45,909 nucleotides of DNA from an uncultured archaeon (GCA_964646355.1 CAZYEE010000002.1:1-45909), one strand, 5' to 3'; numbered from the stretch's first letter, positions 25,079 through 42,043 are shown. Notes: generated by a model not told the origin, from the sequence alone. Numbers and translations: made by a program.

Positions 25079-25576
25079 CTATTCATAAAGTTTTTCCAAT
25101 TCGTCTGCTACTCGTTTTAAATTTACTTCATTTATTAATTTTTGGGTGATTTGAAATGTTTCATTTTTGTCATCATAGACAATATAATTAGCTGCTTGTA
25201 ATTCCTTTAAATGTTGTTTCACATTTTGACCTCTTAAGGATTTAAGTAAATCTATATCGATTTTCTGATTTCTGTAATAATATAGAATTATTACTGCTAA
25301 TGTAGCTGTTGCTGCCTTACTTAATTTTGGTCTAACTATCTCTAAATTTTGTAAATAATCAATAAATTCTGGTTTAAGCATTAAATAGAATCTTTTATTT
25401 TTTGTATTATATTTTAAACATAAAACTGAATTCTCTAATTTAGCTTCAAGTTGAGATATTAAAAATAAGCTGTATTCATAATCTTTAATCTTTATTAATT
25501 TAGAGATGTCATGAATAGAAACTCCTTTTTCACCTCTAATAAATAACAATGATTCAAGACACAATAAATGATTCAA
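25079..25576 (-). CDS. scpB: Segregation and condensation protein B (ScpB)
   Basis: N-terminal LESLLFIRGEKGVSIHDISKLI is the ScpB signature. It has two winged-helix halves and follows scpA by 26 nt. Confidence 0.8.
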   Translation of the reverse strand: MNHLLCLESLLFIRGEKGVSIHDISKLIKIKDYEYSLFLISQLEAKLENSVLCLKYNTKNKRFYLMLKPEFIDYLQNLEIVRPKLSKAATATLAVIILYYYRNQKIDIDLLKSLRGQNVKQHLKELQAANYIVYDDKNETFQITQKLINEVNLKRVADELEKLYE

Positions 25577-25602: not shown

Positions 25603-26289
25603 TTATTCATTAACTACTTTTATATAAATTGTCCCATTAGGAAAATCTTCCTGATATATCTCAATTTTTTCCTCATTTGCTAGATAAGTTAATAAAATAA
25701 GTAGAGCGCCAGCTTCAGACCAATCTTTCCTGGTTAGTAATTCCTCGAATTCAATAACATTTTTATTCATTGAGCGTATCTTCTTATATAATTCATTTAA
25801 TTCTTTTTCAATCAGATAAACTTCAGTTTCTACTGGAAAATAATCAACAATCTGCATGGTTTTATTGTATTTTTTACGTTCAGGTCGATTTATTACGAGG
25901 TCAGTATAACATTTTATAAAATAATTTTCAGTAAGCGGGACCGAGAATTCTGGAATTTTATGATAGAAATTAATAGTTTCTGCAAGTTGGTCATCATTAA
26001 GGGATTTTATTGTTTGAAAAAACTCGAAATTTCCTTTTATTTTTTTTCCAATTATTTTTTGTAAAAGATTTTCTACTTTTTTCTGTATAATTTCAGCAGA
26101 TTGTGAATACACTTCCACTGTTATTTCATCATATCGCCCTTTTTTCAACTCAGATTTTAAAGGTTCATATATGGTATTTATCAAGTTTAGGTTATCTAAA
26201 GAGATTTCACCTTTGAGTGCTTTTGTACATATTTCCAAAATTTTTTCTGCATTGTTTATTTTATTTTTAATTTCTTTATCTTCAGACAT
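25603..26289 (-). CDS. scpA: Kleisin ScpA (segregation and condensation protein A)
   Basis: 228-aa helical protein sitting between smc and scpB, the conserved operon position. The C-terminal winged-helix-like segment is WSEAGALLILLTYLANEEKIEIYQE. Confidence 0.7.
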   Translation of the reverse strand: MSEDKEIKNKINNAEKILEICTKALKGEISLDNLNLINTIYEPLKSELKKGRYDEITVEVYSQSAEIIQKKVENLLQKIIGKKIKGNFEFFQTIKSLNDDQLAETINFYHKIPEFSVPLTENYFIKCYTDLVINRPERKKYNKTMQIVDYFPVETEVYLIEKELNELYKKIRSMNKNVIEFEELLTRKDWSEAGALLILLTYLANEEKIEIYQEDFPNGTIYIKVVNE

Positions 26290-26397: not shown

Positions 26398-29300
26398 TTA
26401 ATTATAAGATTCGCGTTTTATACAAGTTATCCTTGTAAAACCCTTCTTTTTATGAAGAGAATAAATTCGTTGAGCAAATACTCGAAGATAGGACTTTCTT
26501 GGGGTAGTAACTATATATTGACTACTATTAGAAAGTTGTACCAACAATTTTCCCAGTGATTCGCAATGTTGATCATCTAAATGAGCATCAATTTCATCAA
26601 GAAAATACCAAACACTTTTTTTAAGTAGTCTTTGAATTGCAAAAATAATACTTGCGGCGACTATACTATTTTGTCCACCTGAGAGAGATCGAGTACTTGA
26701 TACCACACCAGAGCCCATATCTACCCTTATATCTACTCCACTTTCAAGTGGAGATTGTGGATTAATTGAAATTAGTTCAATACTACCTTTAGGATGTATT
26801 TTATTAAAGATATATTTTAAATTCTTATTCAATTTATCTAAAGTTTCAATAAATTTTTGCTTCTTTTGTTCATAAAGATCATAATATAAATCAGAAGCGG
26901 ACTCTAATTCCTCTTTGCAGGTCTTTCTTTTTTCAACTAGTTCATTAATCTTTTTCATTTCTTCCTCATATTTTTCGGGAGCTGTGGGGTCAACAGGGCC
27001 CAATTTGCTTAACTCCTCTTCTAATTTTTCAATTTCAAGGTCTATTTCTTTAAAATCAATTTCCTTTATCTCATCAATTTTTACACCGAGTGATGCCATT
27101 TTATCCTCAATATTTTTAGCTCGTTCTAAGAGAGTGGATTTAGATTTATTTAACTCATTAATTTCATATATTAAACCTTTAATTTCTGCATCTATCTCCT
27201 CTTTTTTATCTACAATTTTTGCCCTTCTTTTTTGTATAGACTCTAATTGTTCATTAATCTCTTTGATTTTATTATCGATTTCATCATATCGTTCTCTTTG
27301 AGTATCTATCAGCTTTGTTAATTCCTCTCTTTCTATATCTAGTTCAGACCGCTCTTTTTCTACTTCTTTAATTTGATTTTGATACTCCTGTATCTGGCTT
27401 TCAAAAAAGGCGATTCGTGAATTGTAATTAAGAATTTCGGTATTATATCGTGCAATTTCTTTTTCTGAACTTGAAATTTTTTTATGTAAAGAAAGAATCT
27501 GCCCTTGTTTCTCTTTTATTTGATTTTCGACATTACCTAATTCAGTATTATCAATTTTAAGTTGAATTTCAGCCATTTTATTTTCTAATTCTCGAATTCT
27601 TTCGATAGTTAATCCTAATTCGGCGTCAAGATTTTCAAATTGTGTGACCGCTTCAATATATTCATCTTCTAATTTTCTATAGTCCATTATTACTTTATCT
27701 AGTATAGGATTAATTTCTAGAACTTGATTTTCTAGCTCCAAAATTCTTCCGTCTAACTGAGCTAGCTCTTCAACAATTTCAATTCGTTTCCGATCAGACC
27801 TCTCACGATCAGTGGTTAATTTGGTCACTTTTTTTCTTAATTGTGTATAATGACCTGTTAATTCTTCAAGTTCAAGTTTTACTTCGTAAATTTTTCGTCT
27901 ATAAAATTCATTAATTAATAAAAATCTTGAATCAAATTTATTTAATATCACAATCTCGCCAGTGGGCTCCACCAGAATACCGTCCTTAGTCACGCATCTA
28001 AAATTCGAATATTTTAATGCGGTATCGAGATCGACGACTAATAAAGTATTCTGAAATATTGCTTTGAATAATTTTTCATATTTTGGATCATACATAACAT
28101 AGTCAATAATTTTTCCAAGAACTTTGCTATCAGCTGGCACTTTCAATTCTTTAAACTCTTTAATATCGTTTAATGAAAAAAATGAGATTTGGCCAAAATT
28201 TAAGTCATTAATTTTCTGGGTAATCTCTTCTATATCATGATAATTATTTACCACAATATTTTGAAGTTTCTCGCCCCCCGCAATTTCAATAGCAAGAGCA
28301 TAATCCTTTTTTATATCAGAAATTAATTCTAAGGGAGTACCAATTACTGTTTTTAATATGCTATCGTCTCTTAATTTGAGTATTTTCTGTATTTCATCTG
28401 AATATCTAGGAATCATTTTTTCAAGTCTTATTTCGAGTTCATGTTTTTTCTCCGTTAATTCATTTATTTGTTTTTCATATTCGGTAATATTATAAAATAA
28501 ATCTCGCATTTCATCTTGACTATACGTTAAAAAGGTTTCAATTTTGTTTTTTTCATTACGTAAACGGTTTGATTTTCTTTGCATTCTGGTAAGTTTGCTG
28601 TTTATATTATTTAAAGAATCTTCTAATTCATTTTTTCGATTTAATAAGCTTTCTCGTTTATTTGATAGAATTTCAGTCTTACTCCTCCATTCAGTACGAA
28701 ATTTATCAATTTCATTCTTTTTTTGTTCTAGTTTTTTGATCTGTTCGTCTATTTTTTGGCGTTCTAAAGTAAGATATTTATATTCATCTTCAAGAGCAGG
28801 TAATCTATCTTTTAACTTTAAAACTTCCAGTTGCAGTTTTCTGCTTTTCTCTTTATTTTCTTTATCTAATTCTCTGATTTCAGATAATTTTTTCTCTGCT
28901 TTTTTTCTTTGATCTATGAGTTTCTTGATAGACTCATTTCTAAAAGTATTAATTTTTCTTTTAAATTCATCGATTTTTTCTTTTTTCTTAAAAATTTCAT
29001 CATTTATTCTATTTAAATTCTGAATTTGAATGCTGGATGCACCTGCCATCCGCATTTTTTCCTGTTCCAGCTTAGTACGTTTTAACCTTTCTTTTTCAAT
29101 CTGACCTCTTATTTCAGAAATTTCAACATCAAGTTGAGAAATTTGATTTTCCAGCTCTTTTATCTTGTTATTTCGTTCATTTATTTGATTATCGTGTTCA
29201 GAAATTTTTGAATTAAGTCTATTCAAAACGGATAATAATTTTAAAGCTTTATTATAATTTATTTTTTGCTTTATTTCTCTATATTTTAAGGCTTTATCTC

Positions 29301-29919
29301 TAGATTTTTTATATTTCTCTAATCTATTTTTAGCATCTTCTATAAGTAGTTCAATATGGTACAAAACATTTTTTGCATTATTTATTTTAGCTTCTGCTTC
29401 TGATATTTTTGGGTCATATTGAGATACACCTGCAATTCTTTCAATTAATTTTCTAAGACTCTCAGGAGATTCATTAATCTTAGTAGATATTTCTCCTTGT
29501 TTTACCATATTAAATCCATTTTGATTTATTCCATACTTGGCTAAAACTTCTTGAATCTCTGATAAAGAAGCGTTATTGCCATTTAATTTATAAACACTAT
29601 AAGCCCGCCCACTTTTTGGGACCCTTAATTGTCTTGTAATGGTTATAATTTCATTTTCTTCATCATCACTAAATATTAATGTTACTTCACAAAAATCAGC
29701 CATTCTCTGATTTATTGTAAAGTCTTTACTTATTAATTCAATTGCAGTACCTTCTAATCGATCATCATGTCCTCCTAATGCAAATGATATGGCATCTAGA
29801 ACGTTCGATTTACCTGTACCATTATTTCCCGTTAAAAGAGTTATCTTTTTTGAAAAATCTATTTCAAAAGATCCATTAAAAGTTTTGAAATTTGTTATAA
29901 TAGCCTTAGATAAGTACAT
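26398..29919 (-). CDS. smc: Chromosome segregation ATPase SMC
   Basis: Walker A GNNGTGKSNVLDAISFALG, with long coiled coils flanking a central hinge (about aa 520-680). Signature LSGGQNS and Walker B WYFLDEIDAHLD. 1173 aa. Confidence 0.95.
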   Translation of the reverse strand: MYLSKAIITNFKTFNGSFEIDFSKKITLLTGNNGTGKSNVLDAISFALGGHDDRLEGTAIELISKDFTINQRMADFCEVTLIFSDDEENEIITITRQLRVPKSGRAYSVYKLNGNNASLSEIQEVLAKYGINQNGFNMVKQGEISTKINESPESLRKLIERIAGVSQYDPKISEAEAKINNAKNVLYHIELLIEDAKNRLEKYKKSRDKALKYREIKQKINYNKALKLLSVLNRLNSKISEHDNQINERNNKIKELENQISQLDVEISEIRGQIEKERLKRTKLEQEKMRMAGASSIQIQNLNRINDEIFKKKEKIDEFKRKINTFRNESIKKLIDQRKKAEKKLSEIRELDKENKEKSRKLQLEVLKLKDRLPALEDEYKYLTLERQKIDEQIKKLEQKKNEIDKFRTEWRSKTEILSNKRESLLNRKNELEDSLNNINSKLTRMQRKSNRLRNEKNKIETFLTYSQDEMRDLFYNITEYEKQINELTEKKHELEIRLEKMIPRYSDEIQKILKLRDDSILKTVIGTPLELISDIKKDYALAIEIAGGEKLQNIVVNNYHDIEEITQKINDLNFGQISFFSLNDIKEFKELKVPADSKVLGKIIDYVMYDPKYEKLFKAIFQNTLLVVDLDTALKYSNFRCVTKDGILVEPTGEIVILNKFDSRFLLINEFYRRKIYEVKLELEELTGHYTQLRKKVTKLTTDRERSDRKRIEIVEELAQLDGRILELENQVLEINPILDKVIMDYRKLEDEYIEAVTQFENLDAELGLTIERIRELENKMAEIQLKIDNTELGNVENQIKEKQGQILSLHKKISSSEKEIARYNTEILNYNSRIAFFESQIQEYQNQIKEVEKERSELDIEREELTKLIDTQRERYDEIDNKIKEINEQLESIQKRRAKIVDKKEEIDAEIKGLIYEINELNKSKSTLLERAKNIEDKMASLGVKIDEIKEIDFKEIDLEIEKLEEELSKLGPVDPTAPEKYEEEMKKINELVEKRKTCKEELESASDLYYDLYEQKKQKFIETLDKLNKNLKYIFNKIHPKGSIELISINPQSPLESGVDIRVDMGSGVVSSTRSLSGGQNSIVAASIIFAIQRLLKKSVWYFLDEIDAHLDDQHCESLGKLLVQLSNSSQYIVTTPRKSYLRVFAQRIYSLHKKKGFTRITCIKRESYN

Positions 29920-29934
29920 TTTAACAACATCTAA

Positions 29935-31614
29935 TTATTTATTTAATTCAAATTCAGTAATAACTTCATTATATTGATCATCGGTAAAAGATATAGTATA
30001 TTTTTTCCCAATTTTTGGAAAGAGAATTGAATATGGATTTTTATTTAAAGTCCTTTTTAACGTTTCAATATTTATTCCGGCTACTTTTTGAATTTCACTT
30101 AAGTCTAGGGCTCTCTGTTCTGTTTCAAATAATTTAGCTAATCTTGAAATCAAATTATAATTATCAGATAGCGCAAGTCTCAGCGCATTCTTGATCATCT
30201 TTTTGTTTATTAACATTTGAGAGTTTAATGCTTCGATTTTTAATTCAATTTCTTCTAAATCAGAGGAACTAGAATAAATCTTATCTGTGGTAGATTGAAC
30301 TTTAGAAATTTTTTTCAATCTTGGAGAAAACTTTGATTTTTGAGCAACAATATTATTAAACGAAAATTGGATATCATCTTCAGAAACATATTCTTTATTT
30401 TCATTGATTGATTTAAAATAAGCTCCTTCAACTATCTTTACAAGATCTTTGCAGGAAAGCCCATCCATATTTTCATCCATAGTTAAATTGCTCACTAAAA
30501 TATTGATATCTAGATTTTCATCCAAATTAATATTTTCTAATAATCTATGTAAGATTTCAGAACGTGCAACCTCGTTTGGATAGTCAAATAAACAATATTG
30601 ATCAAATCTTGACAAAAGCGGTTGATCTAGATCGTCCAGATCTATTGTAGTACATATAACCAAAACTTTATCATTACATAAATTAATTTTATCTAAGAAA
30701 TTTAAAAAATTAAGAAGTGCCATGTTTGAGATTTCCGAATTAAATATTAACTGAACATTTTCGATTAATAAAATACAAGGTATTATATTTTCATTATTTT
30801 TTACGAGATTAATTATATAGTCAAGCGATTCAATCTGAAATTTGATATTATTTGCTAATAATAATGGTAAATTTAACTCTAAAATATTTAATGACAACTC
30901 TTTTGCTATTGCATAAACTGTAGATGTTTTTCCATTTCCTGGTGGGCCATAAAGTAATATTTTTGAGTCAAAATTGTATAATTGCTTAGGTAATTTGATA
31001 AGCCGTCCTCTTGATAATATAAGATCTTTATTTGATTGATAATCACCCAGCATTTCCAAAGTAATTTTGATGTCTTCGGGGGATACGATTTTATATATCT
31101 TTTCAATATTTGAACTTTCTTCGGAATCTGGGGCAGATTTGATTAAGTTCTTGATGGTATCTTGGAATTCCTGAGTGATTTTTCTGATTTCTTCTATGAT
31201 AGAATCAGTTCCATAATCTCTAATTGCGCCCATATTAATTTCAATTTGACCATCTGCTACTTGGGAAATTATCGAATCAACCTTTTTAGCCCAATTATCT
31301 ATTTTATTATAATTAGTCTGTAGCTCAGAAATATTCTTTATATTGTTTTCAAGCTGACTTTTAATTTCAACTAAATCTTCTTTTATTACTACCAGATCTG
31401 CACCTAATTCAGATAGCTCTTTACCATTTAAAAGTCTCAAGCTTTCGCTTAATTTTTTACTTAATTCTGATACCTTGCTTGTAATAATATTAAAAGCTTC
31501 TATAACTCCTTCAGCTTTCGGGACGTCTCCTTCAGGAGTTGCAATTCTCTCTATTACGATATTTTTTTTCTCAGACACTTTGACCAAATCCCTATAGTTA
31601 TATATTATCATCAA
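29935..31614 (-). CDS. Classic-clade AAA+ ATPase with N-terminal coiled coil and C-terminal winged-helix-like domain
   Basis: Walker A LLYGPPGNGKTST. The Walker B position reads CILLIENV, so the Asp is replaced. It also has a sensor/second region of homology (VICTTIDLDDLDQPLLSRFD..., P.EVARSEIL). The stop is 15 nt upstream of the smc start on the same strand. Confidence 0.8.
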   Translation of the reverse strand: MMIIYNYRDLVKVSEKKNIVIERIATPEGDVPKAEGVIEAFNIITSKVSELSKKLSESLRLLNGKELSELGADLVVIKEDLVEIKSQLENNIKNISELQTNYNKIDNWAKKVDSIISQVADGQIEINMGAIRDYGTDSIIEEIRKITQEFQDTIKNLIKSAPDSEESSNIEKIYKIVSPEDIKITLEMLGDYQSNKDLILSRGRLIKLPKQLYNFDSKILLYGPPGNGKTSTVYAIAKELSLNILELNLPLLLANNIKFQIESLDYIINLVKNNENIIPCILLIENVQLIFNSEISNMALLNFLNFLDKINLCNDKVLVICTTIDLDDLDQPLLSRFDQYCLFDYPNEVARSEILHRLLENINLDENLDINILVSNLTMDENMDGLSCKDLVKIVEGAYFKSINENKEYVSEDDIQFSFNNIVAQKSKFSPRLKKISKVQSTTDKIYSSSSDLEEIELKIEALNSQMLINKKMIKNALRLALSDNYNLISRLAKLFETEQRALDLSEIQKVAGINIETLKRTLNKNPYSILFPKIGKKYTISFTDDQYNEVITEFELNK

Positions 31615-31789: not shown

Positions 31790-32302
31790 ATGGACGATTT
31801 AGATTTTAATATTACATTAGGAGAAGTAAAAGGTTATTGGAATTGGAAACATAACATACCCTTATTTAGATTTACCGAGGGTAGAGGCGAAAATTGGAAG
31901 AGAAGATTAAAGGAAGAATTGGAAAAATTAGAGATACTAAAGAAATATGGTAAAGAAAAAATATTCTTTGAGGATATAATTTTAGACGAAAGAAATGACA
32001 GAATTTTTCATTGTCTTAGCAATATAAAAGGTAAGAAAATTGATATTGTTATAAGATTACCCGTGCGATATCCAAAAGATCCACCTCTTGCGGACTTTTC
32101 GGTAGGACCATGGGCATTTCCCAGTGAAGCTGGTATTAGATCTGCATGTTTAGGCCAAATTTACAGTAAATGGGATAGGACCGGAAGGATGGGAGTGGCG
32201 CATTTTGTAGGGATGTTAGGTTCATATATAGCTCTTGCCCTACATTCAATTTCAACCCCAAGAGTAAAAAATGAAAATCTAAAAAGACGAAAAAAGCATT
32301 AA
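31790..32302 (+). CDS. UFC1-like (UFM1-conjugating-enzyme-like) E2, paralogue 1
   Basis: 170 aa, against 167 for human UFC1 as I recall it. WKRRLKEELEKL matches UFC1 WVQRLKEEYQSL. IRLPVRYPKDPP matches IPITYPTTAP. The candidate catalytic Cys120 lies in SACLGQIYSKWDRTGRMGVAHFVGMLGSYIALA, compared with [34 protein letters not shown]. There is no HPN motif, as in UFC1. Confidence 0.8.
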   Translation: MDDLDFNITLGEVKGYWNWKHNIPLFRFTEGRGENWKRRLKEELEKLEILKKYGKEKIFFEDIILDERNDRIFHCLSNIKGKKIDIVIRLPVRYPKDPPLADFSVGPWAFPSEAGIRSACLGQIYSKWDRTGRMGVAHFVGMLGSYIALALHSISTPRVKNENLKRRKKH

Positions 32303-32320
32303 ATTTTTATAAAGAGGGTG

Positions 32321-33157
32321 ATGATCATAGATTTTGCGGATATTGCAGATGAGATAAAATCAGAAATGAGACCATGGACTGAAGTTGAGGTAATTATTTC
32401 CGATATTCAAGGAAATATAAAGTATTCAGATATTTTTTCTCAAAAGTTTTTATTAGCACTCTCAAGATTTATTAAGAAAAAAGGTCCAACTTTTGCAATC
32501 GGGGATTATTACTATATCCAAAATGTTTCTGGTGTCATGCTCTTCAAAACTTCGATGAACAGTATGGTAATTCTTAGAACACAACAAAAATTAGGGATTT
32601 TATTGATCTTTCTTAAAATATTAGAACGTATAGGACTTGAAATTGATATTCTATTAGGAGATTATATTCGAATAGAAAAAACACCACCAAAATATTGTGA
32701 TCAAGAGTTCATTCCCAGAGAAATACCATTATTTAATATCATTGCTAAACCAAATTCTCCAAATTGGCTTGACAGGTTACAAGAGGAATATGATAAATTA
32801 AATTATTTATATAGATTAAGAGATACTTATTCAACATTTAGTATATATAAACAAGCAAATAGTAATAGAATTTTCAAATGTTCATTCCAAGGTATTGTAT
32901 TCGATCTCAGATTAAGCCTTCAATATCCATTTGTTATGCCTATTGCTGATGGCTTTTATTTTGGTCGATGGTTTAATCCTGCAGGAGATCATAAAAATGC
33001 ATGCTTAGGCATATTAAAAAATAGATGGAGACCCGATGGAAGAATGGGAATCGCTCATTTTATTCAATTATTAGGATATTATACCTCTATAGCAAATTCG
33101 AAACCAGTTGAATTTAAGGTAAGACAGCCAAGAGCAATAAATATTCATTTTTATTAA
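32321..33157 (+). CDS. Roadblock/LC7-like N-terminal domain fused to a UFC1-like E2 domain, paralogue 2
   Basis: The N-terminal 115 aa or so fit the Roadblock pattern (EVEVIISDIQGNIKYSD...VMLFKTSMNSMVILRTQQKLGILL). The C-terminal half has WLDRLQEEYDKL, LSLQYPFVMP and NACLGILKNRWRPDGRMGIAHFIQLLGYYTSIA. The Cys codon is at 33002-33004. It starts 15 nt after paralogue 1; GTG is at 32318 and ATG at 32321. Confidence 0.75.
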   Translation: MIIDFADIADEIKSEMRPWTEVEVIISDIQGNIKYSDIFSQKFLLALSRFIKKKGPTFAIGDYYYIQNVSGVMLFKTSMNSMVILRTQQKLGILLIFLKILERIGLEIDILLGDYIRIEKTPPKYCDQEFIPREIPLFNIIAKPNSPNWLDRLQEEYDKLNYLYRLRDTYSTFSIYKQANSNRIFKCSFQGIVFDLRLSLQYPFVMPIADGFYFGRWFNPAGDHKNACLGILKNRWRPDGRMGIAHFIQLLGYYTSIANSKPVEFKVRQPRAINIHFY

Positions 33158-33257
33158 TTATTGCTCCTTATTTATTCCTAATGTTTAATTGTGTTATTTT
33201 TTTACGAATTTTAACGGCTGTTTTTCAATAGAACATGTTTTATTCAATATCAAATCT

Positions 33258-34082
33258 CTATCTTTTTTCTTGAATATCACCACATGTATCGCAATTTTTT
33301 CTAGGAGTTAGATTAAAGTACTGGAGCGATACATCTTTTTCAAGTGAAAATCTTATTTGTGAAGGTATTGGCTCATTTAAAACGAGTTTTATTCCTTGAT
33401 CTGCTTGAAGACTGCCCGTTATATTCATAGTTGTTGCCAAACTTGCGCCGCAAGGTATTTTTGGAATTTGTATTTGAGATTCATCAGGTTCTAGGTCTAT
33501 CAAAGTATCATAGCTATAATAGCATTCTAAACAAGGTGTCTTTCCAGGTATTACATTATTAACAATCCCTCTTAATGCATTTTCAGATGTACCACCATCT
33601 ATTAAAGGTTTTCTTGATATTACCGCATATAGATTTACCTCAATCCTTGCAGCTTCATTATCAAAACATGTAAAAATAAGATTAGATTTTCTTATCAACT
33701 CTTCTAATTTGTCCCAAGCAATTATATCAGCCAAATACCATTCAGTTTTAACATGAAACTTTTTATCGATTTCAGGGAGATTTCTTGTCCGTTCTAAGAA
33801 TTTTGCCAAGGTTTCAGATTTACTTTTTCCCAAATCTTCTTCGTGATGGTTCATACGATTCAAATTTTCCTCAGAAACGATATCCTTGTCCACGATTATA
33901 AATTTTCCAAATCCACATCTATTCAAAATATCTGCTACAATTCTACCAAGTCCACCAGCGCCCCCAATAAATACCGTGGTATCTAGAAATTTACGGACAT
34001 CATAGCCAGCAAATATAACTCGTGAAAACATTTTTGGCATATTCAAAGCAAGCTCTTCTCGTTCTTCAACTGGAATCAACAT
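33258..34082 (-). CDS. UBA5-like E1 (ThiF-fold adenylating enzyme with catalytic-Cys loop)
   Basis: [68 protein letters not shown] matches UBA5 [50 protein letters not shown] matches UBA5 [26 protein letters not shown], which contains the catalytic Cys. The second zinc pair is CDTC near the C-terminus. Confidence 0.85.
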   Translation of the reverse strand: [274 protein letters not shown]

Positions 34083-35150
34083 TTAGATATACCACCCAAA
34101 TGTGTCAGTTATTAAAATATCTAATATCAGATCAAATAGATTCTTAAAAAAAATTAAATTAATCTTTTTATGCTCTTCAATTATTTTCCATTCTAATGGT
34201 GTTTTTATTTTGGAAACTTTAGTATAATTTGGTAAAATTTTATCATTTTCAACAAATCTGAGTTTAGTTATTTCGGATTCGTCTATTTTAATAAGGTCTA
34301 ATAAAATATCTCTTAATTTATACAAAGTATCATCTTGATCCAAGAAAATCCGAATTAGAATATCCTCATTTAAACCAACATTTTTTAAATAAACAGGGTA
34401 TCGTGGAGGAATGTCCAATTTTTTGGGTATTTGATCCAACTTTAAATCATAGGGAATAGGTATATTATCTATTTCAAAATCAGATCTCGAAAATAATTTT
34501 AATAATTCATGCCCTATTTGGTCTAAGAATCGATACTTTAAACCTTTTACATTTTCAGATTTTTGTGCTACCAGTTTTAGATCTATTTTAAGCGAAATTT
34601 TTTTCTCAATTAACTGTTCATAAGGTTCGAGTTCTCGAATTTCTACTTCTACTTCATAGATATTATTTTCAGTGGCTGTATAGCCTGCTATTCCATCATA
34701 CGGCTCTACAATATAAATTATAAAGGCATTCTGAGAAGAACCTTTACCATATAATAGATAATCTTTTTTATCTGTTCCGCTATAACCTAAAAATCCTGGA
34801 TGTTTATGCATATTTCCAACAATATCAAGCCCAGCAGGTAATCCAGCCCTTATTCTGGCTATTTTTTTTAATCCGGATTTTATAAACGCACCTGATTGCT
34901 CAGTATAGTCGAATTCAATTAAATCATAAATATAACAAGTCTTACCTCTAAATAAACCTACAATATAAAACCCTACCTCATTTGGTGTTTGACGACCGAT
35001 ATCTAATGCCTTTAACCATAATTTTGTAGGTAATATTATTTTATTTACTATGGGTTTATCTTCATGTTCTATATCTAAATACCCAAATTCACTTTCATAA
35101 TCATCATATTTCTTTTTATAACGTTGACTTTTTCTGAAAAACAAGATCAA
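34083..35150 (-). CDS. JAMM/MPN+ metalloprotease domain fused to a C-terminal beta-grasp (ubiquitin-like) candidate segment and a hydrophobic tail
   Basis: Glu in PNEVGFYIVG. The metal/catalytic motif HKHPGFLGYSGTD (H115, H117, S124, D127) is at nt 34770-34808. Residues about 251-324 (PVYLKNV..ILIRIFLDQDDTLYKLRDILLDLIKID..KLRFVENDKIL..LEWKII) have a beta-beta-alpha-beta-beta-beta pattern. The last 27 or so aa are hydrophobic (LIFFKNLFDLILDILITDTFGWYI). TTG start. The gene is flush with both neighbours: a 5-nt gap upstream and 0 nt downstream. Confidence 0.7.
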   Translation of the reverse strand: MILFFRKSQRYKKKYDDYESEFGYLDIEHEDKPIVNKIILPTKLWLKALDIGRQTPNEVGFYIVGLFRGKTCYIYDLIEFDYTEQSGAFIKSGLKKIARIRAGLPAGLDIVGNMHKHPGFLGYSGTDKKDYLLYGKGSSQNAFIIYIVEPYDGIAGYTATENNIYEVEVEIRELEPYEQLIEKKISLKIDLKLVAQKSENVKGLKYRFLDQIGHELLKLFSRSDFEIDNIPIPYDLKLDQIPKKLDIPPRYPVYLKNVGLNEDILIRIFLDQDDTLYKLRDILLDLIKIDESEITKLRFVENDKILPNYTKVSKIKTPLEWKIIEEHKKINLIFFKNLFDLILDILITDTFGWYI

Positions 35151-35155
35151 AACCC

Positions 35156-35704
35156 CTAAATGTTAATAGGTCTGCTTTTTCGTTCTAATGCATAATAATA
35201 TCCGATCATGGTACAAAAATGTGCAAGACCAAATCTTCCATCAATTCTCCAGCGCTTTATAAGTTTTCCAAAACATTTATAAGCAAGAGAGACATGAAAA
35301 TCACCCTCAGACCTCTGAACTAAAGGAATTTGCTTCGGATATAAAATTGATAACCTTATTTCTAATTTCATAGGTTTTGAACCTTTTGAAAAATAGAAAT
35401 CGGCGCTCCAGATTCTCGTATTATTGCTTTCATGTTTCAAATTGTCAAAAACATAAAAACCTACCGAATGTATGTATTTTTCTTTTAAAATATTAAAAAT
35501 TTCATATTCTTCCTGGACTCGAAGGTTCCATTTGGTCGATCTTGGAGTATAAATATTTTTAAACAATGGTAATTCTTCAAAAATAGCATCGCTTTTAATC
35601 TTAAGTTCGTATGGAGTAAGAAAATTTTTCCGAATAAATTCATTCATATCTATTGAAATATCGTCGAAGTATTTTCGCATATCAAGATAATCTTTGTCCG
35701 TCAA
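35156..35704 (-). CDS. UFC1-like E2, paralogue 3 (most divergent)
   Basis: WNLRVQEEYEIF, IRLSILYPKQIP and YKCFGKLIKRWRIDGRFGLAHFCTMIGYYYALE. The Cys144 codon is at 35273-35275. 182 aa, TTG start. It is the first gene of the E2-JAMM-E1 operon. Confidence 0.75.
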   Translation of the reverse strand: MTDKDYLDMRKYFDDISIDMNEFIRKNFLTPYELKIKSDAIFEELPLFKNIYTPRSTKWNLRVQEEYEIFNILKEKYIHSVGFYVFDNLKHESNNTRIWSADFYFSKGSKPMKLEIRLSILYPKQIPLVQRSEGDFHVSLAYKCFGKLIKRWRIDGRFGLAHFCTMIGYYYALERKSRPINI

Positions 35705-36508
35705 TTTCAGTTCCCATTATTAATAAAATGTTAATTTTATTTAAAGTATTTGAATTTAATATTTTAAAATATAGAGCTCATAATTTAACAAATCATTTTT
35801 GAAAATAACCAGTTTTTTTATTAATGTCTAAAAAATATATCTATAAGGAATTACCTTTTTATTGAAAATATTTGATTCTTTCATTGGAGTAAAATAACCA
35901 TCACGTTTTTTATATCATTTAACCGAAATCATTAAACTAATCCTTGATTTTAATTTTTTTATTTTTGTGGATAAGCTTAATTTTTACACCATTACTAAAA
36001 ATAATAATGGATATTGGATCAAATTAGGAGAATTTTCAAGAAAAATTACACTTTACACTTTACAATCGAAAAAAAGATAAAAATACAATGATGAATTTAT
36101 TAGTAATTTATGAATTAATTCTGAATAATCAGAAAAAAAATAAAAATTCACTGTAAGAATTTTAGGATTAATTTACGGTGATTTTATTTTGCAGACTAAA
36201 AAATCAAAATATTATAATAAAAGTAGTAAACAATACGGCAGACAACACAATAAACAAAAGATTGTTCAATATTTACATGTTTTTAAATCTGTATCACTTA
36301 AAAAATTGAACAAGATATCCGGCTGAACTTTAATGAAATTCAAGAAATAATCAATAATGAATTAAATTCGGGGAGAATTATCGGGGAATTTAAATTTGGA
36401 ATATTTTATAGGGATCTAGATATATCCAAAAAAAAGAAGGAACTATTATTAAAATATATAAATGAAAATGATAAGATTTTTTTAGAGGATGCCTCAAGGA
36501 TCGCCCGA

Positions 36509-37393
36509 TTGAGTCCAAGACAGACTCGTGACTTAATTGATGAATATTTAAATGGAAATATAATTAAAGGGAAATGGAATTCAGAAAAAAATCTATTTAT
36601 CAATTTTGCTGTAGAAAGTGTTTCAAAAGAATTAGAGGTAAAAAGAGATTTTGATTATGTTGGAGGGAATGTACGCTTTAAAGTGGTCGTGAGAAATGTC
36701 ACAAAGATGCCAATAACAGATATTAATGTAATATTAAATGTAGGTGGACAGTACATAATTGATGAAGAGTCCAAAAAGGTTGAGGCATTAATGCCTGGAG
36801 AAACGAGGGGGGTAGATTTTATGCTTACACCAGTCACATGCAGAATATCAAAAATATTAGGACTGGTCACCTATTATGACCCATTCAATGAAATGCATAG
36901 TATTACTATAAGACCAAAGGATATTCGAATTAAATGTCCTTTAGTAATCCCCGCTGATGCAACAAATAGCGAAATAATTGAATGGCAAAAATCATTGTTA
37001 AAGGGTTATAGCGTTATTCAATATAAGGATTTACCACCAAATCATGTTTTTAATATAGTCTGTGATCAAATATCTTCTTTAGATTTAAAATTAATCAGCA
37101 GGAATGATGAAGACCTAATCTCAACTTATGCAGGAATAACAAAAATCTCTAACTCAAAACTTGTGGTAGTCGCTAAAATTAATCGTGATGAAATCAAAAT
37201 AGCAACATGGACTCCATCATTAAAAGAAGCTACGGGGTTTATTGCATATTTAAAGAATCTAATCAATATTGCACTAGATGCATCCCAATTAAAAGTAGGT
37301 ATGGAGAAAATAGGACAAAAAATCATTAGGCTTTTTGAAGTATCTCAAAGATTAATTACATTATACGAGTTTTGTAGAAAAAAGAATCAGTAG
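36509..37393 (+). CDS. Winged-helix + beta-sandwich protein, function unknown; true 5' end probably lies upstream of 36509
   Basis: The WH-like N-terminus is FLEDASRIARLSPRQTRDLIDEYLNGNIIKGKW. The Ig/CARDB-like segment is GGNVRFKVVVRNVTKMPITDINVILNV...LMPGETRGVDFMLTPV. The same frame stays open back to 36302 (69 codons) with no ATG, GTG or TTG in it. Confidence 0.65.
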   Translation: MSPRQTRDLIDEYLNGNIIKGKWNSEKNLFINFAVESVSKELEVKRDFDYVGGNVRFKVVVRNVTKMPITDINVILNVGGQYIIDEESKKVEALMPGETRGVDFMLTPVTCRISKILGLVTYYDPFNEMHSITIRPKDIRIKCPLVIPADATNSEIIEWQKSLLKGYSVIQYKDLPPNHVFNIVCDQISSLDLKLISRNDEDLISTYAGITKISNSKLVVVAKINRDEIKIATWTPSLKEATGFIAYLKNLINIALDASQLKVGMEKIGQKIIRLFEVSQRLITLYEFCRKKNQ

Positions 37394-37434
37394 AGGATTT
37401 ATTAATCCTAATAAAAGAGATAAAATATAAATTG

Positions 37435-38109
37435 ATGAAAATTGATAGAAATAACAAAATAATAAATTATATTGAGCAATGGGAAATAGATTTTGGTACA
37501 AAATATGATGAAAATAATCTTAAAGAAAACATTATATCAAATTTAATATATGATACTTTAAATTGGTTGGAAGAATTAGAAGATTCTATTAATACAAATA
37601 TCGATAATTATTATGCCTCATTTAAAGAGAATATTGAAGCAATTGAAGAAAATAAGAAAAAATTATACGAATTAAGAAAAAATATTAAATTAATACAAAA
37701 AGATTACCTGAATTTAATTCTTAGATATATAATGGTCATCTATAAAAATAGTGGAATTGTTGTTTATTCTTATGCGTTCAGTGGATTTGATATGGATGAA
37801 GATTTAATTTCGGGATTTCTTACAGCTATCGGTTCTTTTGGTACCGAAATAACAAAAAAAGATACTGATATGGAATCGATTAAATATCAAGATTTTGAAA
37901 TAGAGGTGGCAAATGGCACGAATATTAAAGTCGCCTTGATTTTAAATGGGAAAAAAATAGATGTTATTAAAAAATTGATTAGAAAATTTATAAATATGTT
38001 TGAAATGGAATATAAAAATGAATTGAAAAATTGGAGTGGTGATGTTTCTATCTTCAATAATGCTAATAAATTAATTGATGAATGTTTTAATTTTGGTAAT
38101 GAAAATTAA
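37435..38109 (+). CDS. Coiled-coil protein with C-terminal Roadblock/longin-like domain
   Basis: The N-terminal 90 aa or so are helical. The C-terminus (IMVIYKNSGIVVYSYAFSG.DMDEDLISGFLTAIGSFGTEI...IKVALILNGK) fits the archaeal Roadblock/longin-like pattern. TTG is at 37432 and ATG at 37435. Confidence 0.6.
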   Translation: MKIDRNNKIINYIEQWEIDFGTKYDENNLKENIISNLIYDTLNWLEELEDSINTNIDNYYASFKENIEAIEENKKKLYELRKNIKLIQKDYLNLILRYIMVIYKNSGIVVYSYAFSGFDMDEDLISGFLTAIGSFGTEITKKDTDMESIKYQDFEIEVANGTNIKVALILNGKKIDVIKKLIRKFINMFEMEYKNELKNWSGDVSIFNNANKLIDECFNFGNEN

Positions 38110-38119
38110 GGGGACAATC

Positions 38120-41100
38120 ATGATGAAGATAAATAATAAAAAGATTTTTTTCATATTGGTAATAAATATTTTAGTATTTTCCTTTTTAATGAACTTTCTC
38201 GTGAGTTTTTATTCCAGAAATAGTCTTAATCAGAATAATATACCTAATCATGACACAATAAGAAAAATATCAAGTAGTACGGTTTATCCACCATTTTTAC
38301 GTGCCCAAAAGGAATGGTTTACAGAAAATGATACACAGACCTATGACCTAGCAAGTTATGATTTTGACGGAGATAATATATCGGAGATAATTTCGGTAGG
38401 GTTTTATAAAAACGATGCAGATCAAATATTTGGGCAAATTAGGATTTGGAATTTTAGTTTAAATAGAATAAATCTAATAATATCAAAATCATTTAGAGAA
38501 TCGAGCGATATTATATTCCGCGGTATAGAAATTACAGATATAGACAATGATGGAGTAAGTGAATTAATCATAGCCGGGGATTTAGAACCATTAAAAAAAG
38601 GTATAATTACAATATGGAATTATACGAATAATGCATTGGAATTGGAAGCAGAAAAGACATGGGGTTATAATGTTATTGGGCCCTATGTTTTTGGAGTTGC
38701 AGTGAATGATTTTGATAACGATTCTTATTATGAAATTGCTACTATTGGGTATTATTCTGGATATACTTATCTAAATATTTGGAACTATTCAACAAATCAG
38801 ATATTAAATGAATCACAATTTAATTGGAGAAAAGGTGCAGATACCATACCTAATTCAATTGCAGCTGATGATATAAACGGAGATGGAATTATTGAAATAA
38901 TAATAGGAGGTCGAATCTCAAAAACGCCATATAATGCATTTGTTAATATCGTAAAATATGCTAATGGAAGTTTATATAATCTCTATGAAACAGAGTGGGC
39001 TGATGGAAACACTGAAGTTCTTGTCGTAAAGACCTGGGATTTCAATAATGATACTATACACGAGATAATTTCGGGTGGATATACAAAAAAGGACGCACTA
39101 TATTCTGCAATGGAAATTGCTATCTGGGAAATTGATAATAATAGTCTTGTCCTAATTAACGAAACATATTGGTATTCATCATCATCGCATGCAAGATTGT
39201 GGGATTTAGAAATTACTGATTTTGATAATGATGGATTTATTGAAATTATTTCGGGTGGATATATTGGTAGAAAATCTGAATTTAGAATTTGGAATCTTAC
39301 AAACGATAATATAAATTTAGAAGCATCAGCTGAATGGGATACCTATGAGGATTTGACTGGCGGTTTTGACAATGTTGCAGACTATAATTTATTATCCGGA
39401 GATTTTGATTCAGATAATGTACTTGAACTTTTAACATCTATTCAGAATAAGACAAGCCTCAGTGGAGATTGGAAAGTTCAATTCAGAGTTTGGGATGCAA
39501 ACAATTATACGATAATCTTTGAAGATTTTAAAGTAAAATACAATCCAATTTCGCAATGTGTAAATATAAAGACTAAATTAAAATGTACATATCAAGGACA
39601 CGGATATCTAAATGCCTCAGAAATTAAAACAGCTAAATATTATATTAGAAAAAATAATGGGAATGATACTGGGCTATCAGGAAATTTGGTTTATGATTTA
39701 TTAAATGATTCATATTGGTCTGCTATTGTTAATGTATCTATTTTGCCAAAAGGAATTTATTATATAGAACTATTTGCTGATGATGGGCATGTCTCAAACA
39801 ATACAGGATATTTACCTGGAAATCAAAACCAATTCAAAATAGGGTTTGAATTAAATAATTTATACAACTTACAGCTGATAAGTTCCACTGAGTGGATCAG
39901 TAATTCAAGTTCTACATATATTTATGATAAAAAAGTAATTGATATAGATAACGACGGAATTAAAGAAATTATAGTATTCAGTAGAATATTTTTAAGTCCA
40001 AATTTGGCTGAATTACAGGTTTGGAATTTTGTAAATGAAGAATTGATATTAAAAGATACTTTTCAATGGGGTATGGGCGGTTCAACAGACATAATACCGA
40101 GAGCGATTGATGTGGGCAATATTTTAGGGGATGATAACTTAGAAATAGTGTGTGGGTCATATTTTAAAAATGAATCTGGTAAAAATGAGATTCTAATTAA
40201 TATATTTAATTATACTGATGGTAAAATTAAAAATGTTACCGCATTTAAATGGCACTATTATAATGAAACTTGGATCTATGATATGAAAATTGGAGATATA
40301 GACAATGATAACACCAACGAACTAATTACTGGTGGAAGCTTTTTTGAGAATGATCGAGAAAAAGCTTTACTAGCTGTTTGGAATTTTTCTAATAATAAGC
40401 AATCATTAGAAGCCGTAAAAACCTGGATTTATAATCCATATAACGATACTTTTATTTATAGACTTGATATAGCAGATATTAATAATGATAATAACCTTGA
40501 GATCGTTGCTGGAGGGATTATATATATTGGTAAGTTTATAACCGCAGCTTTCTTATCTGTTTATAATTATAGCCATAATATAATATTAAATATGTCATCA
40601 AATCTAATTATTGACGATCCATACGATATGTCTATTACCTATCTTTGTTGTGATGATGTTGATAACGATAATTTGACTGAAATAGTTGCTTCTTTTAAAG
40701 TTGATACGGAAGGTAATTGTACTATTGGTGTATTTAACTTTACTGAAAAGTCCATAAATATTGAAAATTATACTAGAGTATATTTTGGAGTCTCGACAAC
40801 TATAATGAGTACATGCACGGGAGATATCGATAAGGATAATTATACTGAAATTGTATTTACTGGATTCTTGTCAGCTAATCCATCCGATGCCTTTTTCGTA
40901 ATCTATAACAAAACAGGAAACAATTTTCTCAAGGAAAACTTTACTCGTTTTGATATCAATATTAATGATATTATTTACCAAGCAAAAATTTCTGATATTG
41001 ATAATAATGGGATACCTGAATTAATCACATTTTCAAATATATACTATGCAAATCCAATTTCTAAAAATTATGCTCAATTAAGAATTTGGATAGCACCATT

Positions 41101-42043
41101 CTTAAAAATTAAAATAGGTAAAATAACTCAAGATTACAAGAAGGACCTAATTTCTCTCTGGGATATTTCCGTTTATTCTTTTTTACATGGATTTATAAAT
41201 GGTACGGGTTATCATCAGACCAATTTTAAAGTTTATAATGCTACTGGAGAATATACAGGGATAAATGGCATTCTTGAATATAATTTAGATACTCAGAGCT
41301 GGTGTGCAGAAAATATAAATGTATCGAGCCTTTTAGACGGCTTGTACTATGCAATCATATATTTTGAATATTATGATTCATTAGGATTTAGTTTTCATAT
41401 AATAAATGATACAAGTGAATTTGTTATTGACAATACTAAACCTTATTTTTTGGATACACCCAATGATTATCAATATATAGTAGGAACAAGGGGTAATATT
41501 ATAGAATGGATTCCTATGGATCTTCATCCTGGTCAGTATTTTATTTATATCAATGATATTTTGGAAGAATCTGGATTCTGGGAAGCAAATAAATCAATTA
41601 AATTTAATTTAGATGGGTTCAATGTTGGGACATATACTGTTAAAATAGTAATTAATGATTCTTTTTCAAATATTATAACGCATCAATTTACATTAACAGT
41701 CTATAATTCTAATAAACCACCTGAAAATTATTGGTTAATTATATGGATTACTATAATAATCATGGTAATTTCGGTGGCTATATCTATATTTCTTGTAAAA
41801 ACTTATCAGACAAAAAAATCATATCTAAAAGAAAAAACTACCCAAACTTTTGACCAAATTATCAAAAGTATTCGATTTTTAATAGAAGGTAGGGATGAAG
41901 TAAATATAAATGAAATATCTAATAAAATTGGGAAGTCATATGAAGAGACTGAAGAAATAATCGTGTCTTTGACTTATAAGGGTATTTTAAAGGGATTTAT
42001 TGATAAAAATATATTTTATAATGAGGAAAATTTTTTAAATTAA
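38120..42043 (+). CDS. Giant surface protein: signal/anchor helix, two seven-bladed FG-GAP/VCBS-type beta-propellers each followed by an Ig-like domain, a third Ig-like domain, a TM helix and a cytoplasmic winged-helix tail
   Basis: There are 14 Ca-binding-loop-like motifs of the D.D.DG..E(I/L)(I/V) type, 7 per half. Examples are DFDGDNISEII, DIDNDGVSELII, DINGDGIIEIII and, in the second half, DIDNDGIKEIIV, DIDNDNTNELIT, DIDNNGIPELIT. N-x-S/T sequons are abundant. The TM helix YWLIIWITIIIMVISVAISIFLV is at 41729-41797. The track start at 38075 overlaps the upstream gene, whereas ATG 38120 is preceded by AAGGGGA. Confidence 0.85.
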   Translation: MMKINNKKIFFILVINILVFSFLMNFLVSFYSRNSLNQNNIPNHDTIRKISSSTVYPPFLRAQKEWFTENDTQTYDLASYDFDGDNISEIISVGFYKNDADQIFGQIRIWNFSLNRINLIISKSFRESSDIIFRGIEITDIDNDGVSELIIAGDLEPLKKGIITIWNYTNNALELEAEKTWGYNVIGPYVFGVAVNDFDNDSYYEIATIGYYSGYTYLNIWNYSTNQILNESQFNWRKGADTIPNSIAADDINGDGIIEIIIGGRISKTPYNAFVNIVKYANGSLYNLYETEWADGNTEVLVVKTWDFNNDTIHEIISGGYTKKDALYSAMEIAIWEIDNNSLVLINETYWYSSSSHARLWDLEITDFDNDGFIEIISGGYIGRKSEFRIWNLTNDNINLEASAEWDTYEDLTGGFDNVADYNLLSGDFDSDNVLELLTSIQNKTSLSGDWKVQFRVWDANNYTIIFEDFKVKYNPISQCVNIKTKLKCTYQGHGYLNASEIKTAKYYIRKNNGNDTGLSGNLVYDLLNDSYWSAIVNVSILPKGIYYIELFADDGHVSNNTGYLPGNQNQFKIGFELNNLYNLQLISSTEWISNSSSTYIYDKKVIDIDNDGIKEIIVFSRIFLSPNLAELQVWNFVNEELILKDTFQWGMGGSTDIIPRAIDVGNILGDDNLEIVCGSYFKNESGKNEILINIFNYTDGKIKNVTAFKWHYYNETWIYDMKIGDIDNDNTNELITGGSFFENDREKALLAVWNFSNNKQSLEAVKTWIYNPYNDTFIYRLDIADINNDNNLEIVAGGIIYIGKFITAAFLSVYNYSHNIILNMSSNLIIDDPYDMSITYLCCDDVDNDNLTEIVASFKVDTEGNCTIGVFNFTEKSINIENYTRVYFGVSTTIMSTCTGDIDKDNYTEIVFTGFLSANPSDAFFVIYNKTGNNFLKENFTRFDININDIIYQAKISDIDNNGIPELITFSNIYYANPISKNYAQLRIWIAPFLKIKIGKITQDYKKDLISLWDISVYSFLHGFINGTGYHQTNFKVYNATGEYTGINGILEYNLDTQSWCAENINVSSLLDGLYYAIIYFEYYDSLGFSFHIINDTSEFVIDNTKPYFLDTPNDYQYIVGTRGNIIEWIPMDLHPGQYFIYINDILEESGFWEANKSIKFNLDGFNVGTYTVKIVINDSFSNIITHQFTLTVYNSNKPPENYWLIIWITIIIMVISVAISIFLVKTYQTKKSYLKEKTTQTFDQIIKSIRFLIEGRDEVNINEISNKIGKSYEETEEIIVSLTYKGILKGFIDKNIFYNEENFLN

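Follow-up and report, generated by a model that had tools for sequence, protein, structure and literature searches.

What does an archaeon do with several E2 conjugating enzymes of a kind of which eukaryotes use one? The question is raised by a 45,909-nucleotide stretch of DNA from an uncultured archaeon (GCA_964646355.1 CAZYEE010000002.1:1-45909; this whole stretch is referred to here as the window), in which a preliminary description had placed three divergent paralogs resembling UFC1, the E2 of the eukaryotic UFM1 pathway, between positions 31790 and 35704. The three genes, here named A, B, and C, form a cluster with genes for an E1 activating enzyme and a JAMM-type protease in the order A, B, E1, JAMM, C, with A and B on the plus strand and the other three on the minus strand. 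We consider it probable that A, B, and C are Cys-dependent E2s of the UFC1 family that operate in a chromosomal, vertically inherited cascade of the UFM1 type, whose chemistry is throughout a proposal. As the named close relatives of the window's proteins all come from metagenome-assembled genomes (MAGs) labeled Candidatus Helarchaeota or Lokiarchaeota, the window is a contig of an Asgard archaeon of the Helarchaeota type; remoter members of the E2 family are labeled Hodarchaeota and Promethearchaeota. The G+C content is approximately 28% over the whole window, and that of the cluster equals that of the rest.

Three divergent E2 paralogs that share an invariant cysteine

All three open reading frames (ORFs) were found where the preliminary description had put them, and the codons that it named for the candidate catalytic cysteines proved exact (TGT at 32147-32149, TGC at 33002-33004, and, on the minus strand, TGT at 35273-35275). 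The ATG at 32321 from which B had been read is also the start of the database gene call (P0009; 278 aa), and the ORF extends upstream to a GTG at 32318, from which 279 aa are encoded. The features of the three genes are listed below, with the evidence in parentheses (AF2, AlphaFold2 model).

31790..32302, plus strand: E2 paralog A, 170 aa, UFC1-like, A-type (ORF; orthologs P0001-P0008)
32147..32149, plus strand: TGT codon of Cys120 of A, candidate catalytic Cys (codon read; column invariant)
32255..32299, plus strand: Lys/Arg-rich C-terminal tail of A, TPRVKNENLKRRKKH (sequence)
32318..33157, plus strand: E2 paralog B, a fusion of a predicted Roadblock domain with a UFC1-like E2 domain (ORF, AF2, Foldseek; orthologs P0009-P0015)
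32318..32629, plus strand: predicted Roadblock/LC7-fold domain of B, residues 1-104 (AF2, Foldseek)
32705..33103, plus strand: predicted E2 domain of B, residues ~130-262 (AF2, Foldseek)
33002..33004, plus strand: TGC codon of Cys229 of B (codon read; column invariant)
35156..35704, minus strand: E2 paralog C of the UFC1-like C type, 182 aa, extended by ~45 aa at the N terminus (ORF; orthologs P0016-P0022)
35273..35275, minus strand: TGT codon of Cys144 of C (codon read; column invariant)

The A and B genes occupy one reading frame (31790-33157), with nothing between them but the A stop codon and 15 bases. As the corresponding genes overlap by 4 bases in a related locus (L004), the junction looks like tight operon spacing and not read-through.

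The three proteins had been described as too divergent to be recent duplicates, with only a motif skeleton in common. The divergence is deep, but the similarity exceeds a skeleton. In pairwise BLASTP comparisons, A and B were 37% identical over 130 aa (E value of 5e-20), A and C 35% identical over 133 aa (4e-17), and B and C 31% identical over 159 aa (3e-19); at E values between 4e-17 and 5e-20, it is certain from the sequences that the three are paralogs. Eukaryotic UFC1 shares 20 to 28% identity with A, B, and C over approximately 130 aligned positions. In an alignment of 22 sequences, comprising the A, B, and C groups with their close orthologs (P0001-P0022; seven or eight in each group), the Cys, YP, W, G, and HF columns were invariant, and the Cys column remained invariant in an alignment of the 59-sequence family. 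The R..G..G.AHF motif reported downstream of the cysteine was present in all three proteins as G..G.AHF, and its leading R was confined to B and C, A having D-R. The same 22-sequence alignment showed that C carries its N-terminal extension of ~45 residues together with a shorter loop before the cysteine. Basic C-terminal tails were present in most A-type orthologs, including distant ones.

Affinity of the paralogs to UFC1

Using a profile that combined A, B, and C to search the PDB, approximately 26 distinct UFC1 sequences were retrieved at E values of 1.2e-9 to 5.5e-8, with the best canonical E2 at 3.3e-4. The alignment spans residues ~8 to 150 of UFC1 and sets the invariant cysteine opposite Cys116 of UFC1 (in 'KICL') and the segment 'IPLF...W..RL.EE' opposite 'IPVLK...W.QRLKEEY'. 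With its column invariant in the 22 orthologs and the 59-sequence family, the cysteine is both retained and equivalent across the three copies, as had been supposed. A profile of the A type matched UFC1 structures at 5e-6 and reached canonical E2s at no better than 9e-4, and a profile of the C type matched UFC1 structures only (9.4e-5), with Cys144 of C aligned to Cys116. Searches of the PDB with A, B, or C as single sequences returned marginal matches to assorted E2s only. When the combined profile was used as a query against 1.84 billion representative proteins, only 44 were found at an E value of 1e-3 or better, among them eukaryotic UFC1 at 5e-5 to 8e-4. Of the 45 aligned sequences (42 matches plus A, B, and C), 12 were recognized by the Pfam UFC1 model at an E value of 0.01 or better, and five of these 12 (P0059 and P0061-P0064) were read as bona fide eukaryotic UFC1.

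The AF2 model of B, built from the 59-sequence alignment, had a mean predicted local distance difference test (pLDDT) score of 81.7, with block means of ~84 to 97 over residues 130 to 260. It has an E2 fold and, in Foldseek comparisons, its best template modeling (TM) scores among E2s were to UFC1 (0.52 to 0.61, mostly 0.56 to 0.61, over ~140 columns); TM scores to canonical E2s were mostly 0.38 to 0.54, with one of 0.56. Foldseek E values did not separate UFC1 from canonical E2s, and UBE2S outranks UFC1 by this measure. The description of the three proteins as UFC1-like is upheld: the profile of each paralog group favors UFC1 over canonical E2s, and the model of B agrees.

Canonical E2s carry two C-terminal helices. 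In the model of B, the cysteine is followed by a short helix (residues 230-235) and one long helix (244-258), after which the chain ends; in A and C, 50 and 38 residues, respectively, follow the cysteine, which to judge by sequence leaves no room for two such helices. All three can be described as a minimal E2 core like the short core of UFC1, predicted from sequence for A and C and from the model for B. Neither a match to Pfam UQ_con (PF00179) at an E value of 1 or better nor an HPN motif was found in A, B, or C. In a neighbor-joining tree of the E2 family, the C-type clade had 94% bootstrap support and the A and B clades 100% each. Here, A, B, and C are classed within the UFC1 lineage of E2s as divergent members, rather than as orthologs of UFC1.

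The activating enzyme, the protease, and a candidate modifier

Between B and C lie the genes for the two remaining enzymes.

33258..34082, minus strand: E1-like activating enzyme, 274 aa, UBA5-like (Pfam ThiF, 2.2e-37)
33450..33452, minus strand: codon of Cys211 of the E1, in IPCGASLATTM (alignment to UBA5)
34083..35150, minus strand: JAMM/MPN+ protease, 355 aa, ending in a probable ubiquitin-like domain and a helix (AF2, Foldseek, ortholog alignment)
34770..34808, minus strand: JAMM metal-binding motif, H115-K-H117-PGFLGY-S124-GT-D127 (sequence)
34176..34412, minus strand: probable beta-grasp (ubiquitin-like) domain of the JAMM protein, residues ~247-325 (AF2 secondary structure)

The best solved relative of the E1 was UBA5 (1.7e-21), approximately 32 bits above MccB/MoeB (~1e-11). 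Cys211 aligns with the cysteine of 'vCAASLPTTM' in UBA5, inside the adenylation domain; we take the aligned residue to be the catalytic Cys250 of UBA5. The protein has a GAGGLG nucleotide loop and CLEC/CDTC zinc motifs, and it stops at residue 274, a few residues past the second CxxC and right after the adenylation domain. The product of 33258-34082 is predicted to be a UBA5-type E1, that is, an adenylation domain with the cysteine inside it. A second E1-like gene of the window (7653-8405) encodes an ordinary adenylyltransferase of the MoeB/UbaA (SAMP-activating) type, scoring 235 to 273 bits against NCBIfam models, and is outside this system.

The AF2 model of the JAMM protein (mean pLDDT, 73) matched Rpn11, CSN5, BRCC36, and the Rpn11 homolog of Caldiarchaeum in Foldseek at E values of 4e-9 to 4e-7, with TM scores of up to 0.74. 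E58, H115, H117, S124, and D127 were invariant in 7 to 11 orthologs, with a six-residue spacer from H117 to S124, and the motif aligns with HSHPG...S.TD of the Caldiarchaeum Rpn11 homolog; the match to Pfam Prok-JAB was below threshold. The modeled layout is an MPN domain, a linker region, a beta-beta-alpha-beta-beta-beta unit (~247-325), and a terminal helix. The C-terminal unit (block-mean pLDDT, ~68 to 89) yielded no fold match and does not have a C-terminal Gly; by its secondary structure only, it is probably a nonconjugatable ubiquitin-like domain. The invariant Gly259 was entertained as an internal cleavage site and dropped, as AF2 places it in a turn between strands of a single C-terminal domain.

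A candidate for the modifier was found in related loci, where an ORF of ~88 to 96 aa lies directly upstream of the C-type E2 gene (L007-L009, L014-L017, and L026). A C-terminal LG was invariant in 25 sequences, usually within ...PDQLG, and was followed by no residue, by 1 or 2 (F, L, S, R, W, or FR), by 9, or by 58 residues and, in two cases, by ~145 to 155. As LG with variable extensions is the pattern of a ubiquitin-like precursor that is trimmed to a terminal Gly, the small ORF likely encodes the modifier of the system. Long extensions occur at L018 (954-1691), L023 (1028-1735), and L025 (6001-6447), that of L018 holding a long hydrophobic stretch; they suggest precursor or anchored forms. 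Comparison of the modifier family with UFM1, ubiquitin, NEDD8, SUMO1, Urm1, and Atg8 using hhalign gave nothing significant; for human UFM1, P values were 0.02 to 0.07 (not significant), and the longest of the global alignments, at a P value of 0.02, was that with UFM1. That a single terminal Gly after a hydrophobic residue would be nearer to UFM1 (VG) than to ubiquitin (GG) is only a lead.

The modifier is not always encoded beside the enzymes. On AT-rich contigs like the window (L019-L022 and L025), its ORF stands alone, apart from them, and the MAG GF329 has the triple-E2 cluster at GF329_21260-21280 and the modifier (GF329_07210) on a separate contig of 3,043 bp. On account of these cases, the window's organism very probably has a modifier gene outside the 46 kb.

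A Roadblock fusion and related modular E2s

Residues 1 to 104 of B form, in the AF2 model, a domain of the order alpha-beta-beta-alpha-beta-beta-beta-alpha. Its top Foldseek match was a Lokiarchaeota Roadblock domain (8yql; E value of 9.4e-4; TM score of 0.72), and no Pfam match was found for it; as modeled, it has the Roadblock fold. This fold occurs chiefly in dimeric scaffolds and serves as a platform for small GTPases.

Other members of the E2 family are also modular. The non-E2 part of the fusion protein P0028 matches Pfam Roadblock and Ras-GTPase models, and P0036 combines an E2 with a Ras-like GTPase. One member has a HEAT-repeat match in Pfam and another a zinc-ribbon match; judged by their sequences, these are probably P0037 and P0034, respectively. 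At L010 (7117-8606) and L011, the end of a gene for a weakly Arf-like GTPase runs into a B-like E2 gene, at L010 by overlap with the E2 start codon. Homology of the Roadblock domain of B, or of the upstream GTPase of L010, to the Roadblock-GTPase part of P0028 was considered and rejected, as BLASTP found no similarity.

Conservation and evolution of the cluster

Five genes in identical order and orientation were found at L001-L006, representing at least five independent assemblies (from ENA, NCBI, and JGI) that include Helarchaeota Hel_GB_B and 'Lokiarchaeota' GCA_014729825.1; at L005, the flanks on one side differ. Recurrence in independent assemblies rules out an assembly chimera, which the preliminary description had allowed for. 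For A, B, and C, the proportion of nonsynonymous differences (pN) between these assemblies was far below that of synonymous differences (pS), and the ratio of nonsynonymous to synonymous divergence (dN/dS) was ~0.06 to 0.24, with dS near saturation and the ratios therefore approximate. The view that the copies are maintained and not decaying is borne out by this purifying selection and by the recurrence of the cluster.

The triplet is conserved as a unit in L001-L006, but it is not ancestral: the operon of deeper relatives holds two E2s, one of each of the A and C types. In distant Helarchaeota, whose proteins are ~40 to 54% identical, the genes form a single-strand operon in the order small ORF, E2C, JAMM, E1, E2A. 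Such two-E2 operons were represented by L007-L009 from the genome collection and by L014-L017 and L026 from metagenomes, most of which continue with an AAA ATPase and SMC. Measured against this ancestral order, the window lacks the small ORF, and its A(+B) segment is inverted. The second E2 of the distant operons is about equally far from A and B (39 to 45%), and the tree does not decide between an origin of B from A inside the window's clade and an older B-like group that includes P0024 and P0028.

Next to A in the window lies the following gene.

29935..31614, minus strand: AAA+ ATPase, 559 aa, single-domain, Cdc48/VAT/Msp1-like (Pfam AAA, 7e-22)

The best solved relatives of this ATPase are VAT and Cdc48 (~1e-19), and it stands between the A-type E2 and SMC genes at L001-L004, L006-L008, L016, L017, and L026, but not at L005. 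It could be a partner that acts on conjugates; as L005 has no ATPase there, this is only a suggestion. The gene is followed in the window by genes for SMC (26398-29919), a probable ScpA (from gene order; 25603-26289), and ScpB (25079-25576). The order AAA-SMC-ScpA-ScpB after the A-type E2 is kept in Helarchaeota relatives with ~40% protein identity, L005 being the exception, and in those relatives the AAA-SMC-Scp genes share a strand with the conjugation operon.

A lineage with 54 to 64% G+C (L012 and L028-L032) has an orthologous block of E2, E1, JAMM, and modifier genes. Where the contig extends far enough (L012, 4072-10842, and L030, 1245-7994; 60 to 64% G+C), the block is seen to lie directly beside genes of the endosomal sorting complex required for transport (ESCRT), namely, ESCRT-II (EAP30), Vps25, Vps4, and Snf7. 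This adjacency hints at a link between the modifier and membrane remodeling. Synteny of ubiquitylation and ESCRT genes has been described in several Asgard phyla by Hatano et al., with Thorarchaeota seeming to be without true ubiquitin (PMC9192718).

Proposed cascade and alternative explanations

In the UFM1-type cascade proposed here, the JAMM protease (34083-35150) would trim the candidate modifier of ~88 aa and so expose its Gly. The UBA5-like E1 (33258-34082) would adenylate the modifier and take it as a thioester on Cys211, and the modifier would then move to the cysteine of an E2 (Cys120 of A, Cys229 of B, or Cys144 of C). The appended modules, i.e., the basic C-terminal tail of A, the Roadblock domain of B, and the N-terminal helical extension of C, may send one modifier to different targets or places, and the JAMM protease may also reverse conjugation. 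We infer each chemical step of this scheme, as well as the sharing of one modifier by all the E2s, the target specificity, and the ubiquitin/UFM1 fold of the modifier. The subfunctionalization of A, B, and C that had been suggested earlier may be read only from the different modules appended to them.

Several results weigh against this reading. Scores of A, B, and C against the Pfam UFC1 model (PF08694) were 12.2, 13.1, and 14.3 bits, respectively (E values of 0.03 to 0.15), below the gathering threshold of 25 bits; because these single-sequence matches are subthreshold, the UFC1 label is based on the profile and structure evidence. That structural evidence is the AF2 model of B, with A and C placed by profiles. 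The TAK motif, named in PDB entry 9i9m, is missing at the aligned position, where A has PSEAGIRSAC, B has PAGDHKNAC, and C has VSLAYKC, versus GKTAKMYRGGKIC in UFC1. The neighbor-joining tree did not resolve the deep nodes or the attachment of eukaryotic UFC1. UBA5 bears a C-terminal tail that binds UFM1 and UFC1; as the E1 of the window has no tail of this type, E1-E2 recognition must differ. Neither a modifier ORF nor a remnant of one was found in the window by ORF look-up and tblastn, and the modifier of the relatives resembled neither UFM1, nor ubiquitin, nor any entry of Pfam or the PDB to a significant degree.

The alternative that fares best, though we regard it as unlikely, is that one or two of the paralogs serve a single true E2 as regulators, adaptors, or E3-like partners, in the style of UEV1/Mms2-Ubc13, with a cysteine that is noncatalytic or redox active. 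It would account for the co-encoding of two to three paralogs in every case and for the separate places that they keep in the operon, the C type beside the modifier and the A type beside the E1, and it would suit the Roadblock domain of B, a domain known mainly from dimeric scaffolds. The invariance of the cysteine in all groups and throughout the 59-sequence family speaks against it, as does that of the flanking G and W...G.AHF segment around the UFC1 active site. In known E2 variants, the cysteine is gone (PMC9192718); as every copy here keeps it, an E2/E2-variant pair in the sense of the ubiquitin E2 variants (UEVs), which the preliminary description had offered as an option, is disfavored.

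Somewhat less probable still is service in the canonical Asgard ubiquitin pathway (Ub-E1-E2-Rpn11, ESCRT linked), with the likeness to UFC1 reflecting only a minimal E2 core. The orthologous block beside ESCRT-II, Vps25, Vps4, and Snf7 genes in the GC-rich lineage (L012 and L030) fits this explanation, as do the ubiquitylation-ESCRT synteny of Asgard genomes reported by Hatano et al. (PMC9192718), a protease that is Rpn11-like, as in the Caldiarchaeum ubiquitin operon, and a modifier that is not demonstrably UFM1. It is at odds, however, with the preference of all groups' profiles for UFC1 over canonical E2s, by four to five orders of magnitude, and with a UBA5-type E1 that has its cysteine inside the adenylation domain. 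The modifier has no ubiquitin Pfam match and ends in LG, not GG, and the HPN motif is wanting in A, B, and C.

Another alternative is a mobile antiviral defense system of the bacterial E1/E2/JAB type, such as the Cap2-Cap3 module of the cyclic oligonucleotide-based antiphage signaling system (CBASS) or a Bil-like system, and we judge it highly improbable. The gene content (E1, E2, JAB protease, and small modifier) agrees with such a system, the E1 has weak partial matches to PADLOC 'E1-E2' (Cap2-type) models (5e-12; residues 29-107), and the neighboring AAA ATPase weakly matches IetA and TRIP13. However, the E1 matches are confined to the shared nucleotide-binding region, PADLOC models match neither the E2s nor the JAMM protein nor the modifier, the cluster has the G+C content of the rest of the window, and synteny with SMC, ScpA/B, eRF1, and EF-2 is kept in relatives down to ~40% protein identity. 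Least credible of all is a role of the E1 in sulfur transfer or E2-independent modification (SAMP/UbaA-like), with the E2-like proteins unrelated to it. In its favor, the E1 also matches ThiF, MoeB, and UbaA profiles, at 72 to 82 bits and well short of their cutoffs; against it, the window has a proper MoeB/UbaA-type enzyme at 7653-8405 (235 to 273 bits), and the E1 is tightly operonic with E2s, JAMM protease, and LG-ending modifier in all relatives.

Other features around the cluster

Upstream of C lies a gap of 804 bp (35705-36508) with 22% G+C, which is the place of the modifier gene in distant relatives; no plausible ORF, tRNA, or Rfam match was found in it. Beyond the gap are two ORFs without significant Pfam matches (36509-37393, 294 aa, and 37432-38109, 225 aa), at a position where an Fe-alcohol dehydrogenase and a cupin flank the cluster in related genomes. 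They are followed by a gene (38075-42043) for a 1,322-aa protein with FG-GAP repeats and a hydrophobic, probably membrane-spanning stretch near the C terminus. Its 83-residue tail (41792-42040) has subthreshold matches to PCI (E value of 1.2e-3) and DDRGK (E value of 0.052). In eukaryotes, DDRGK1 anchors the UFM1 ligase in the membrane. In related genomes, the gene for the FG-GAP protein does not adjoin the cluster.

Comparison with known conjugation systems

Archaeal sampylation (SAMPs, UbaA, and HvJAMM1) resembles the system described here in that an E1-like adenylating enzyme and a JAMM protease act on a small Gly-terminated modifier; it differs in working without an E2, and the window has a separate enzyme of the MoeB/UbaA type at 7653-8405. 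The bacterial CBASS Cap2-Cap3 and Bil systems share enzyme classes and operon logic with the cluster, from which they are set apart by its separate E1 and E2, its housekeeping synteny and vertical inheritance, and the lack of PADLOC matches for the E2s, the protease, and the modifier. NCBIfam models likewise matched none of these three kinds of protein.

A closer parallel is provided by the ubiquitin operons of Caldiarchaeum subterraneum and the Ub-ESCRT clusters of Asgard archaea, which likewise combine the gene for a small modifier with those for an E1, an E2, and a JAMM protease of the Rpn11 type; one lineage of the present system is located beside ESCRT genes, and the Caldiarchaeum Rpn11 homolog ranks with the best structural matches found for the protease. 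This homolog is reported to process the ubiquitin precursor (PMC6043591). Unlike these operons, the cluster has UFC1-like rather than UBC-like E2s, several of them, a compact UBA5-type E1, no RING E3, and a JAMM protein with an additional probable ubiquitin-like domain and a terminal helix.

The eukaryotic UFM1 cascade consists of the E1 UBA5, the E2 UFC1, the modifier UFM1, the proteases UFSP1 and UFSP2, and the UFL1-DDRGK1 ligase. The archaeal cluster is like it in an E1 whose nearest relative is UBA5, in E2s that are nearest to UFC1, match it at Cys116, and have a short core and no HPN motif, and in a linked candidate modifier that ends in a hydrophobic residue and a single Gly, often with a short, removable extension. 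It is unlike the eukaryotic cascade in having two to three E2 paralogs instead of one, one of which is fused to a Roadblock domain, and a JAMM metalloenzyme in place of a UFSP cysteine protease. Its E1 is tailless, its E2s are without TAK, its genes are operonic, and its modifier is not demonstrably UFM1. UFL1 and DDRGK1 are absent from the cluster, with the subthreshold DDRGK/PCI-like tail lying 2.4 kb away.

A 2023 survey of UFMylation found UFC1, UFM1, and UFSP2 in eukaryotes only; it assigned UBA5 a bacterial origin and traced only UFL1 and DDRGK1 to Asgard archaea (PMC10183829). A structural-genomics paper of 2026 described UFM1 homologs in nine Asgard clades, and its main text makes no mention of UBA5, UFC1, ThiF, or E1/E2-like enzymes (PMC12962969). 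No archaeal UFC1 was found to be described in the literature searched, the coverage of which was incomplete, so that earlier notice elsewhere is possible. Archaeal operons of E1, E2, JAMM protease, and modifier are known already; new, in the literature searched, is a noneukaryotic family of UFC1-like E2s, present two- or threefold, one of them Roadblock fused, together with a UBA5-like E1.

It is conceivable, and we advance it tentatively, that the operon corresponds in archaea to the whole core of the eukaryotic UFM1 pathway and may even be its source, in which case UFC1 and UBA5 would be Asgard derived, like UFM1, UFL1, and DDRGK1, and neither eukaryotic inventions nor bacterial imports. The E2 of Asgard archaea would then have already diversified into paralogs, some tied to Roadblock/small-GTPase modules and, in some lineages, adjacent to ESCRT genes. 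As the locus supplies the missing enzymes in one conserved cluster, with a linked candidate modifier in relatives, the origin of UFMylation becomes directly testable with recombinant proteins. Set beside the eukaryotic cascade with its one E2, the cluster presents an unusual state, a single E1 next to two or three divergent E2s, one of them fused to a predicted Roadblock domain.

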